Part shown: in pieces, positions 43,654 through 47,561 of the stretch | Layout: each line of letters starts with the position of its first letter | How positions within the stretch are numbered: position 1 is the stretch's first letter | Assembly (NCBI GenBank): GCA_000165345.1 | Contig: CM000436.1 | Span: 256,001-320,000 of the forward strand | DNA length: 64,000 nucleotides | Direction of reading: 5' to 3' | Notes under the pieces: model-generated | Told to the model about the DNA's origin: nothing | Database searches by the model: none | The model's input: only the letters and a program-made list of their open reading frames with translations | Translations under genes and position numbers: made by a program

Positions 43654-44313
43654 ATGAATGGGTTTAGATTGTGTGGTGATATGCTCCACCTTTTGAGCAT
43701 TTTTCTTCTTTTAAAAAAGTTAAGAAAGAGTAAGAGTTGTTTGGGTATTTCATGTAAGATGCAGGAAATCTATTTGATAGTATTTTGTAGTAGATATATT
43801 GATTTATTATGGAGTTTTGTATCAGTATATAATACTTTAATGAAAGTTGTATTTATTGCAAGTACTAGTTATTGTATATATTTAATGAGATATCAAATTC
43901 CAATCAGTAGAACTTACGATTCAAATGCAGATAGTTTTCCATATCATAAATATTTATTATTACCAGCCCTATTATTGGGTTTTATTACTTCTGAAAAATG
44001 GATAGTTTCTGAGATATTATGGAGTTTTTCAATCTGGCTTGAATCTGTTGCAATTTTGCCCCAATTAGTACTTTTACAACAATTAAGAGAAGTAGAAAAT
44101 TTAACATCAAATTATGTTGTAACTATGGGACTTTATAGATTATTTTATATTTTTAACTGGATTTACCGTTTCTATGCTCAACATTATGTAAACTGGGTTG
44201 GCTGGATTGGAGGACTAATTCAAACAGCAATTTATGTGGATTTCTTTTACTATTATGCAATGAGTAAATGGTATGGCCAGAAATTGATACTTCCTTATTC
44301 TATTGAGATTTAG
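43654..44313 (+). CDS. ERD2: ER lumen protein-retaining receptor (KDEL receptor, ERD2), 219 aa
   Basis: [40 protein letters not shown]...[23 protein letters not shown]...[17 protein letters not shown] is colinear with human KDELR1 ([37 protein letters not shown]...[20 protein letters not shown]...LGLYRALYLANWIRRY). Confidence 0.9.
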   Translation: [219 protein letters not shown]

Positions 44314-44409
44314 TTCATGTAATTATTTATATTTTCTGCAGTATATATTGAATATTGAGTATAAGTAGAATAAATAAGATGAATTTCTAAGGAAGACTTT
44401 CAGATAAGT

Positions 44410-44429
44410 GAGGGGAGGGGGGAGGGAGG
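44410..44429 (+). repeat. G-rich tract GAGGGGAGGGGGGAGGGAGG (G-quadruplex-capable; resembles the Cryptosporidium G-box motif class)
   Basis: Read directly. It is the only strongly G-rich 20-mer in the window and lies in the convergent 3' spacer between ERD2 and the Pam16-like gene. Confidence 0.7.
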
Positions 44430-44693
44430 CATCGGAGTGTAGGTCAAATTCACGATCCTCTGCTTTTTTTTTTCTATTTTTTAATATTCTTTCTCTTCCA
44501 ATTAGCATCTAAACTGAGTATAAATTAAGAATCTCATTCTTTTAGTATCAAAAAGAGAAAAAGAAGAAATAAAGGAAGAGAAGTAAAAACATATATTACT
44601 TAGTATTAATTTGGACAAAGTTGAATAAAATAGAGAAAGAATTAGTGACCTATTATTTCATGTTCACTCTAATTAAAAAGTATATTTTCAATA

Positions 44694-45360
44694 TTAAATC
44701 TTTGAGTTTTTGATGATTTGGTCCAACATAAGTTTTTCAGCTATAATAAGTTTTTCTTGTATATATGGAGATCCTCTATATTTTCCACTTGCTTCATTCA
44801 ATTCAAGCATTCTTCTTGCAATCTAAAGAACAATATGAATAATTCAAGTTAGAAATAATGCCAATATATGAAGATACATTTTTTTAAAAATTTCTTTATT
44901 AGTTGAGAAAGATTTGAACCATATTTCAACAGAAATTTGGTTATACAAACTTTCAGAAGAGATTGATATAATGATATTTATTATAAACTACAACACTTAC
45001 CTTTTGTATATCTTCTACAGAATACTTCTTCCCAAATTCGGTACCTAGGATTTTGTTTGCTTCTCCAAGAGTCATTTTACTTCCAAAATTGATAGATCGA
45101 ATTGCTTTAATACCATCTAAATCAATTTTAAAGTTTTAATGATAGAATTATATTTGAATATTTAACAAATTTTAGATAAACAAACCTTTATATGAATCTT
45201 TAAAACATTGCTTTACAACACTTTGTAAGGATCCTGAAGTAATCTTAATTAACTTAGTTATTACTCTGGAAATAGTTATTATTAATTATTATGAGTCAGA
45301 AATTTTGGTAAATTATTCAAGTCAACACATCTTAGCTTACCTTAAAGTCCTCGGAGACAT
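44694..45360 (-). CDS. PAM16: Pam16/Tim16 (Magmas)-like J-like-domain protein lacking the HPD motif, 4 exons, ~123 aa
   Basis: Minus-strand exons 45341..45360 (MSPRTLK), 45186..45265, 45001..45116, 44694..44822. Donors GTAAGC, GTTTGT, GTAAGT; acceptors CCAG, TTTAG, TTTAG; phases 2/1/0 with no stops. Product ...DGIKAIRSINFGSKMTLGEANKILGTEFGKKYSVEDIQKIARRMLELNEASGKYRGSPYIQEKLIIAEKLM. It aligns with yeast Pam16 ITLDEACQILNIKEP-LTKEKIEERYTRLFKINSPEKGGSFYLQSKVYRAAERL. The HPD tripeptide of true J-domains (Pam18/Tim14) is replaced by NEA, which is the Pam16 hallmark. The second donor (GTTTGT) is weak. Confidence 0.6.
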
Positions 45361-45962
45361 TCTTATTGAAATACCATAAAATTAATAATATGCTTATTTT
45401 TCTATCTTTCCATGTATTTATTAGATTTATATATAATATATATTATATAGCCAAAATGTACTAATATAAGCATTAATTGTTTATATTACCATTTCTTTCT
45501 TAAATAGAAATTCAAAATCCAATAAGAAATAATGCAAAGAAAAGATATAAATTCAATATTAAGAACTGAAATTAATATGAATGAATGTGAAGTAGAAAAA
45601 CTATTATTGTAATCACTTGATAACTTGTATTATTTGTGGGGAAAAGTAAAAAGCTGAAAAATTAAGAAATCTATAATTTATTAACCAATTATTTTATAAA
45701 TGAAATAGACCATTAAAAAAATGAATCTAATTAATGATTTAAATCCTTATTTTATTTCCTTCTTACAATCAAAATTTATTATTAAAATTATAAATGATTA
45801 CCCCCCAACCGCTTTTATAGAAAGAATTTGCGATTTAGGCGGGAAAGATTGCATGCAGAAATGTAGTAGAGAATAACAATAATAACAGTGGTAATAGTAA
45901 TAATAATAATAGTAATAATAATAAAAATAATAATTAATTAATTAATTAAACAATTAAAAAAT

Positions 45963-47561
45963 TTAATGAAAGATCATTTCTCCAATAAGAACGGTGATTC
46001 CAAAAAATCGAACTGAGACTTTACTTAGATTAGTATTATCATTACATGAACATTTATTATATGAAACAATTTCTTTTTCAGTTTCAAAATAAAATATGTC
46101 ATCCCTGACACTAAGTAAAATGGCGGGAGAAGCTTCACAATGGTAATAAATCATAAAAGATTGACCAGGAACATTCCAAAATATATTTTTGGAACTTAAA
46201 AGAATTTCATTCAAGAATTTAAGACATTTTACTTTAAGTTTTGTGGAAATTTGTATTGGATATAAACTTGAAAGTAGAGATGTAATAGGTGTGTTACTAT
46301 TACGTCTTGTATTATTTTTAGAAGAAATAGTTGATACAATAATATTACCAATGCTAGGATGAATATTGCAATTAAATGTTGCAGAAGAGATATAAATGGG
46401 TCCATTACATGTATTGTATGTATGATCATGAATAGAAATAGCTTTACATTTAACAGATTCACTGAAAGGGAGTACATGATAAGATTGACCAACTTTAAGT
46501 TGACCATATTCAATATATAATGATGCTTTAAATTCAGATGAAGATACTGAGATGATTTCTAGAATACATGCAGAAAAAGAAGTAAATTGTTTAGATTCTT
46601 TATGACAATGACATTCAATAGGGCGTGGTATAGATCTTTTTGAACTTTGATTAATGCTTGATAGAATTTCAAACAAACTAGGCCCTTGATACCAAGAAGA
46701 AAGTTCTTTGGGAAAGGTGTTATTTTTATCATTAAGAATATTGACTCCATGATATGCACTTATTGGTAAAAAAATAATATTTGAATCATTTTTAATATCA
46801 GCAAGTTCTAAATTTATATAATTACTTATTGTATTAACAATATTTGAATAAACTTGTTCATCCCAATTACATAGATCCAATTTATTAACAGCAAAAATAA
46901 TATTCGATACATCTGCTAGAAGTGAATAAATAATATGTTCAATAGTTTGGCCTTTTTGAAATCCTGAATCAAATCCTGAGCTATCAATAACTACAATAAT
47001 ATTATCAGAAAACATTGATATTGAAAAGCTGTTAGGTATAAATTCAGAATGTCCTGGTGCATCCAATATTGTAACAAGTTTTTTTTCAATCATCATACTT
47101 TTAGCTGATATATTGATTGTAATTCCTCTTTCCCTTTCATCATCACAATCATCAAATATCCAAGCATATGCAAAAGATCCTTTTCCAATGATCTCACTTT
47201 CTTTCTTGTACTTTCTCATCACTCCCTCACTAATTAGTCCCAAACTCACAAATAAATGACCCATCAAAGTTGATTTACCAGAATCAACATGGCCTAACAC
47301 TACACAGCTGTAATTATCTATTGTAGGTGTTGATATTATTTCATTTTTCATCTGAATTTTTACTCCTTTATCCTGATTTTGTTTAGCCACATGTTTTTTA
47401 TCTGTTTGTACTGTAGGTTTTGTCTTTACTGTTTTTGTTATTGTTTCTCTTTCATATGCCACATTATCATCATCATCTGAATAGTAATCAGAGTCATAGG
47501 CATCATAATAATCATCATCTGTCAATTCCACATACTTTGATCGTGTACGTGCCATTGTCAC
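45963..47561 (-). CDS. HBS1: HBS1-like translational GTPase (eEF1A/eRF3 superfamily; Dom34/Pelota partner), 532 aa
   Basis: G-domain [91 protein letters not shown] matches HBS1L ([91 protein letters not shown]). Acidic, Tyr-rich N-terminal extension. Domains II/III are divergent, so eRF3 is less likely. Confidence 0.8.
   Translation of the reverse strand: [532 protein letters not shown]

Follow-up and report, generated by a model that had tools for sequence, protein, structure and literature searches.

A four-exon gene on chromosome 8 of Cryptosporidium parvum very likely encodes the J-like protein Pam16/Tim16 (Magmas)

Does the interval between the genes for a KDEL receptor and an EF-Tu-type GTPase on chromosome 8 of Cryptosporidium parvum contain a gene of its own, and is its product the J-like protein Pam16? 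Pam16 is a J-like protein without the ability to stimulate Hsp70; it forms a heterodimer with the J protein Pam18, which it anchors and regulates at the TIM23 translocon (PMC3044749, PMC3237618, PMC5455965). A sequence-only reading of this DNA had proposed such a gene on the minus strand, within a window of 64,000 nucleotides to which all positions below refer, and had guessed that the organism was Cryptosporidium. The guess was correct: both the spliced product and the 219-residue KDEL-receptor open reading frame (ORF; 43654-44313, plus strand, Pfam E 3e-54) are identical to C. parvum proteins. Our analysis makes it very likely that the locus is the C. parvum gene for Pam16/Tim16 (Magmas), with four exons and a product of 114 amino acids.

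The gene order at the locus is EF-Tu-type GTPase, Pam16 gene (minus strand) and KDEL receptor, and the same order was found at the orthologous loci of C. ubiquitum and Cryptosporidium sp. chipmunk genotype. The GTPase appears as a minus-strand ORF of 532 amino acids (45963-47561; Pfam GTP_EFTU, E 6e-34). It was called mechanically from a GTG start and has no exact match in the protein collection; its orthologues are 533-534 amino acids long, and therefore its true start is probably slightly different. No ORF of at least 60 amino acids covers the Pam16 locus on either strand, and at this length the earlier statement that the region carries no ORF call holds. It does not hold at a cut-off of at least 20 amino acids, where ORFs of 38 and 40 amino acids with exon sequence appear (exon 4; exon 3 running into intron 3). 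A plus-strand gene at the locus was ruled out, the longest plus-strand ORF there having at most 44 amino acids.

Four minus-strand exons of 20, 80, 116 and 129 nt were located where they had been proposed. When joined they form 345 nt of uninterrupted frame whose sole stop is the terminal TAA. The product, MSPRTLRVITKLIKITSGSLQSVVKQCFKDSYKDGIKAIRSINFGSKMTLGEANKILGTEFGKKYSVEDIQKIARRMLELNEASGKYRGSPYIQEKLIIAEKLMLDQIIKNSKI, is thus 114 amino acids long (345/3 - 1) rather than the 123 given in the sequence-only reading, and it contains no HPD. Exon 1 (45341..45360) supplies the ATG, codons 1-6 and two bases of codon 7 (MSPRTL R), and its ATG and GTAAG/GTAGG donor are kept in C. ubiquitum and the chipmunk genotype. 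It is followed by intron 1 (45266..45340, 75 nt, GTAAGC...TTCCAG) and by exon 2 (45186..45265), which encodes a basic amphipathic N-terminal segment, RVITKLIKITSGSLQSVVKQCFKDSYK. Intron 2 (45117..45185, 69 nt) has a non-canonical-looking donor, GTTTGT, and the acceptor ATTTAG. Exon 3 (45001..45116) encodes a linker and the first half of the J-like domain, MTLGEANKILGTEFGKKYSVEDIQK, and contains the codon for M48, which begins at 45075. Intron 3 (44823..45000, 178 nt, GTAAGT...CTTTAG) separates it from exon 4 (44694..44822, TAA included), which encodes the second half of the domain with a degenerate HPD loop (LELN-EAS-GKYRGSPYIQ) and helix III. All three acceptors are AG, with T-rich tracts upstream. 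We also observed a four-codon upstream ORF, ATGGTATTTCAATAA (45362-45376, minus strand), which stops 1 nt ahead of the Pam16 ATG. In C. ubiquitum and the chipmunk genotype, a 6-nt deletion removes its ATG.

The gene model was tested in a DNA alignment of three species, C. parvum, C. ubiquitum and Cryptosporidium sp. chipmunk genotype. The four exons have no gap columns and are 75-89% identical to C. parvum (85% for exon 2 and 88% for exon 3, both with zero gaps); the three introns have 4, 1 and 31-38 gap columns and 60-77% identity. Substitutions per codon position were 16/8/25 and 10/10/24, that is, third positions were the commonest. All three splice positions are conserved. Intron lengths vary between the species, with 75, 71 and 79 nt for intron 1 (4 gap columns, 62-75% identity), 69, 68 and 70 nt for intron 2, and 178, 142 and 149 nt for intron 3. 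The GTTTGT junction had been described as the weakest part of the model, and the donor does look non-canonical in C. parvum; however, the alignment supports an intron at this place. At an unchanged position, C. ubiquitum has GTCAGT and the chipmunk genotype GTTAGT as the donor, the length differences of the intron are not multiples of 3, and its retention would lead to a stop after 5 codons.

Is the 114-residue protein the main product of the gene? Deposited models of the orthologues vary (67, 85, 99, 103 and 114 amino acids), and the shorter ones of 67, 99 and 103 amino acids in C. hominis, C. meleagridis and Cryptosporidium sp. 43IA8 raise the possibility that the gene is real and that a 99- or 67-residue isoform predominates. 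The 67-residue form, deposited in other assemblies, starts at M48 and consists of the J-like domain alone. The 99-residue form, seen in some assemblies, ends intron 1 at an AG lying 45 nt further downstream (45222-45221) and loses RVITKLIKITSGSLQ. When GT..AG alternatives were enumerated, it was the only other splice of intron 1 that keeps the frame free of stops, and many other in-frame combinations are possible for introns 2 and 3. However, the segment missing from the 99-residue form is gap-free and kept in the three species, aligns with the conserved N-terminal segment of Pam16 and includes an Arg that is invariant in a 16-sequence alignment. In addition, exons 1 and 2 show a coding-type substitution pattern, a 13-nt deletion right after GTAAGT in the other two species eliminates the alternative intron-3 donors, and the 114-residue model is present in three independently annotated species. 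A shorter main product is therefore unlikely, and judged from these alignments the 114-residue model appears to be the best supported among the gene models.

Downstream of the gene, the convergent intergenic region from the KDEL-receptor stop to the Pam16 stop (44314-44693) is 79% identical across the three Cryptosporidium species, a higher value than that of the Pam16 introns. It probably contains overlapping 3'UTRs. One conserved block, TTTTAATTAGAGTGA(A/G)CATGAAATAATAGGTCACTAAT, lies about 20 nt 3' of the Pam16 stop, and a second, CAGAGGATCG(T/G)GAATT(T/A)GACCT..TCCGATGCCTCCC, may form a hairpin (GAGGATCG/CGATGCCTC). An RNA gene was considered for this region, and neither Rfam nor ARAGORN gave anything significant. 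The region also carries a G-rich run, GAGGGGAGGGGGGAGGGAGG (44410-44429, plus strand), which is unique in the window of about 27% GC (0/100 shuffles match) and is expanded in C. parvum only, when compared with C. ubiquitum and the chipmunk genotype.

The sequence-only reading had considered the gene invisible to annotation. This is outdated, as current GenBank assemblies include the 114-residue model: our sequence is identical to C. parvum QOY39862.1 (CPATCC_003916; locus-tag series 8g1115) and WRK33858.1, and CPHLJ_8g1115 is 99% identical to it. All three records are labelled 'hypothetical' or 'uncharacterized'. Orthologues were found in the chipmunk genotype (84% identity) and C. ubiquitum (82%), the former under the name 'mitochondria-associated granulocyte macrophage CSF signaling molecule', that is, Magmas or Pam16. 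The gene model is thus public already and does not represent a new kind of system; with the orthologue of a sister species named Pam16/Magmas, we regard it as one of the known members of an established family, under a poor label in the reference records of C. parvum. Records of C. tyzzeri, C. meleagridis and C. felis, and one of C. parvum, give the orthologue the wrong name 'ER lumen protein-retaining receptor', which appears to have been carried over from the adjoining KDEL-receptor gene. Accessions of the first Iowa II annotation are lacking in the Pam16 protein cluster and the KDEL-receptor cluster has one (EAK89671.1), which would fit a gene added on re-annotation. The papers searched in full text do not explicitly mention Pam16 or Pam18 of Cryptosporidium, and localisation or proteomic results on the gene were not found either.

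Direct searches with the C. parvum protein were of little help. An HMM check against Pam16 (PF03656), proposed with the original model, gave no match to this family or to DnaJ (PF00226) in a Pfam scan of the 114-residue protein, even at E <= 10. Among ten orthologues from Cryptosporidium, a single one matches Pam16 in Pfam (E 0.008), below the threshold, the gathering score of PF03656 being 30.3 bits. Nothing relevant was found with phmmer among PDB sequences. A profile built from ten Cryptosporidium sequences retrieved yeast Tim16 (2guz_B) from the PDB in the correct register, at an E-value of only 0.34. When the same profile was run against 1.84 billion representative proteins without a word index, 21 matches at E <= 1e-3 were obtained. 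Some of these are exon-fragment ORFs, or a mis-modelled gene, of other Cryptosporidium species. The full-length matches all lack HPD, and none is an HPD-bearing Pam18 at this threshold; those whose source could be identified are all alveolate, namely Neospora 'Magmas', Vitrella PAM16, Perkinsus TIM16 and proteins of Theileria and Digyalum. Ten of the full-length matches were scanned with Pfam; six reach the gathering score of Pam16 (34-45 bits) and two fall just under it. Two of the 21 matches, the long repeat proteins P0029 (3004 amino acids, E 8e-19) and P0039 (845 amino acids, E 2e-5), were discarded as false positives. Their scores add together as many as 14 weakly matching stretches of a short motif resembling ANKILG of the query, and they should be left out of any automated expansion of the Pam16 family.

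Profile-profile comparison of the Cryptosporidium set with the alveolate set (hhalign) gave a probability of 99.3% and E 8.8e-21 over residues 6-111, and the N-terminal 46 residues scored 14.3 bits against an HMM of the alveolate Pam16 N-terminus (0/2000 shuffles reach this score, maximum 4.5), although both values are partly circular because the alveolate set was selected by the Cryptosporidium profile. The exon 2 product aligns with the N-terminal segment of alveolate Pam16, and the N-terminal segment gave no signal against the N-terminus of vertebrate Pam16. The earlier claim that the C-terminal 60 or so residues align with Pam16 is therefore borne out by profile-profile comparison and, as described below, by fold, but not by a direct Pfam scan.

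Against vertebrate profiles, the Cryptosporidium protein gave E 1.4e-6 for Pam16 and E 5.9e-7 for Pam18 in hhalign, and 15.7 and 20.9 bits, respectively, in HMM scoring; these profiles alone do not separate the two families, and the assignment thus runs by way of the alveolate proteins. The alveolate set itself is closer to vertebrate Pam16 (E 2.3e-15 over 103 columns, N-terminus included) than to vertebrate Pam18 (E 8.1e-11). Its profile matches yeast Tim14 and Tim16 about equally, because alveolate Pam16 retains a Pam18-like GSPY(L/I)Q motif. In Toxoplasma, a separate Pam18 is located in the mitochondrion (PMC9490983), and therefore the HPD-less alveolate set represents the Pam16 lineage.

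The slightly greater nearness of the J-like domain to vertebrate Pam18 in both comparisons, together with its Pam18-like RRM..LN....GSPYI motif, could also indicate a degenerate Pam18/Tim14 (DNAJC19-like) paralogue that has lost HPD and the transmembrane anchor and is not a Pam16 orthologue. We consider this quite improbable. The Pam18-like motif is common to the whole alveolate set, most scanned members of which pass Pfam Pam16; the search of 1.84 billion proteins gave no HPD-bearing match at E <= 1e-3; the N-terminus aligns with N-termini of the Pam16 type; and the loop has the length found in alveolate Pam16. As for a Pam18 partner, tblastn found none within the 64-kb window, and a protein database search with human DNAJC19 gave vertebrate sequences only among its best 120 matches.

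The features of the protein favour the assignment to Pam16. The sequence-only reading had HPD replaced by NEA. The tripeptide is indeed absent, but the register was off by one: in hhalign, HPD of vertebrate Pam18 aligns to E82-A83-S84, and N81 corresponds to the conserved Asn ahead of HPD. The loop from N81 to G89 is as long as in alveolate Pam16; vertebrate Pam16 and Pam18 both have two residues fewer there. The maximum Kyte-Doolittle mean over 19 residues is 0.92 (1.74 in human DNAJC19), that is, the protein has no transmembrane-grade stretch.

The N-terminal segment (residues 1-45) is basic and amphipathic, with a net charge of +7; residues 48-112 make up a three-helix J-like domain that has EAS in the loop between helices II and III and is almost invariant over ten Cryptosporidium sequences. 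An AlphaFold2 model was generated with a 16-sequence alignment that included Pam16 homologues. It has pLDDT values of 85-92 for residues 48-112, with helices at 50-57, 67-81 and 91-112; helices in residues 1-45 are predicted at low confidence. Among 48,164 PDB chains, the top structural match of the model was yeast Tim16 (2guz_B; 64/65 residues aligned, score 10.9, 2.0 A, 30% identity), followed by yeast Tim14 (2guz_A; 8.8, 2.0 A, 23%), with generic J domains at 5-8; 2GUZ may itself have been among the structures on which the network was trained. Foldseek found no significant match of the model in the PDB. On the basis of the predicted structure, a C-terminal three-helix J-like domain of the Tim16 type is present. 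Thus, the Pam16 assignment is supported by E-A-S in place of HPD, the loop length, the N-terminal score, the lack of a transmembrane-grade stretch and the modelled structure. The identification made in the sequence-only reading was upheld: the exact model is deposited, the orthologue of a sister species is named Magmas, the alveolate matches lack HPD and the closest structure is yeast Tim16.

In size (about 115-150 amino acids) and in layout, with an N-terminal segment ahead of a three-helix J-like domain that lacks HPD, the Cryptosporidium protein resembles yeast and human Pam16, and it shares with them (yeast J-like domain: PDB 2GUZ chain B) the Asn ahead of the loop and a G-S-x-Y-(L/I)-Q motif. 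According to PMC3044749 (Fig. S7 legend), a Leu of the Pam16-Pam18 interface pocket is conserved; the corresponding position is I93 here (SPYIQ versus SFYLQ in yeast), a conservative change, and the alveolate homologues have Leu, with Ile in the Perkinsus protein P0048. Unlike opisthokont Pam16, the Cryptosporidium protein lies beneath the reach of the Pfam model, has two additional residues in the loop and GSPY for GSFY, and its N-terminal segment is more basic (net +7) and far less hydrophobic (Kyte-Doolittle maximum 0.92 versus 1.30) than that of human Pam16. The likeness to alveolate Pam16 (Neospora caninum 'Magmas' XP_003886203.1, Vitrella brassicaformis PAM16, Perkinsus olseni TIM16 and unnamed proteins of Theileria and Digyalum) extends to architecture, loop length and aligning N-termini, and includes the common motif N-(A/E/S)-(P/A)-S-G-x-(F/Y)-x-G-S-P-Y-(L/I)-Q. 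However, identity to these proteins is only 23-30%, the Cryptosporidium protein has no C-terminal tail, and its N-terminus has lost the hydrophobic signature G-P-L-x-R-I-x-A-Q-V, except for the Arg. HPD, a transmembrane anchor and a DnaJ (PF00226) signature characterise Pam18/Tim14 (DNAJC19; PDB 2GUZ chain A), the true J protein of the motor; none of the three is present in the Cryptosporidium protein.

What might such a protein do in C. parvum? The mitosome of this parasite has no DNA and relies on protein import (PMC12691609), and a conserved Pam16 would be in keeping with an Hsp70 import motor that has been retained. From its homology to the yeast and human proteins, we infer that C. parvum Pam16 would be located in the mitosome, pair with Pam18 and act as a regulator. 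It would not stimulate the ATPase of Hsp70 by itself; it may keep Pam18 at the translocon and restrain its stimulation of mitochondrial Hsp70, and could thereby help to power the uptake of presequence proteins by the relict mitochondrion, a process that depends on ATP.

A Pam16-derived J-like protein might also have left import and have been repurposed, or be decaying. There is a precedent in T. brucei, where Pam16 and Pam18 have been turned to the replication of mitochondrial DNA (PMC11349236). The Cryptosporidium protein has also diverged too far for Pfam's Pam16 model to detect it, other Pam16 proteins are far more hydrophobic at the N-terminus, and about half of the codons changed between species are non-synonymous. 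However, the mitosome has no DNA to replicate and still needs protein import (PMC12691609), the J-like domain is nearly invariant in the ten Cryptosporidium sequences, and the frame, splice sites and gene order are all retained. A loss of the import function therefore seems very improbable to us, and a Pam16 active in import is the preferred reading. Also unlikely is the idea of a distinct alveolate subclass of Pam16, with a Pam18-like GSPY motif and two extra residues in the helix II-III loop, of which Cryptosporidium Pam16 would be a member with altered function; in Cryptosporidium, a strongly basic amphipathic helix would stand in for the usual hydrophobic N-terminal segment that docks to the translocon. 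If true, this could mean a different way of docking to, or import by, a reduced mitosomal TIM23 machinery, or a motor that operates without a canonical Pam18.

The practical value of these findings is in annotation: the evidence justifies the name Pam16/Tim16 for the gene and a preference for the 114-residue model. Beyond this, the inventory of the C. parvum import motor bears on how the drug-relevant mitosome is built, because an organelle without DNA must import all of its proteins (PMC12691609).
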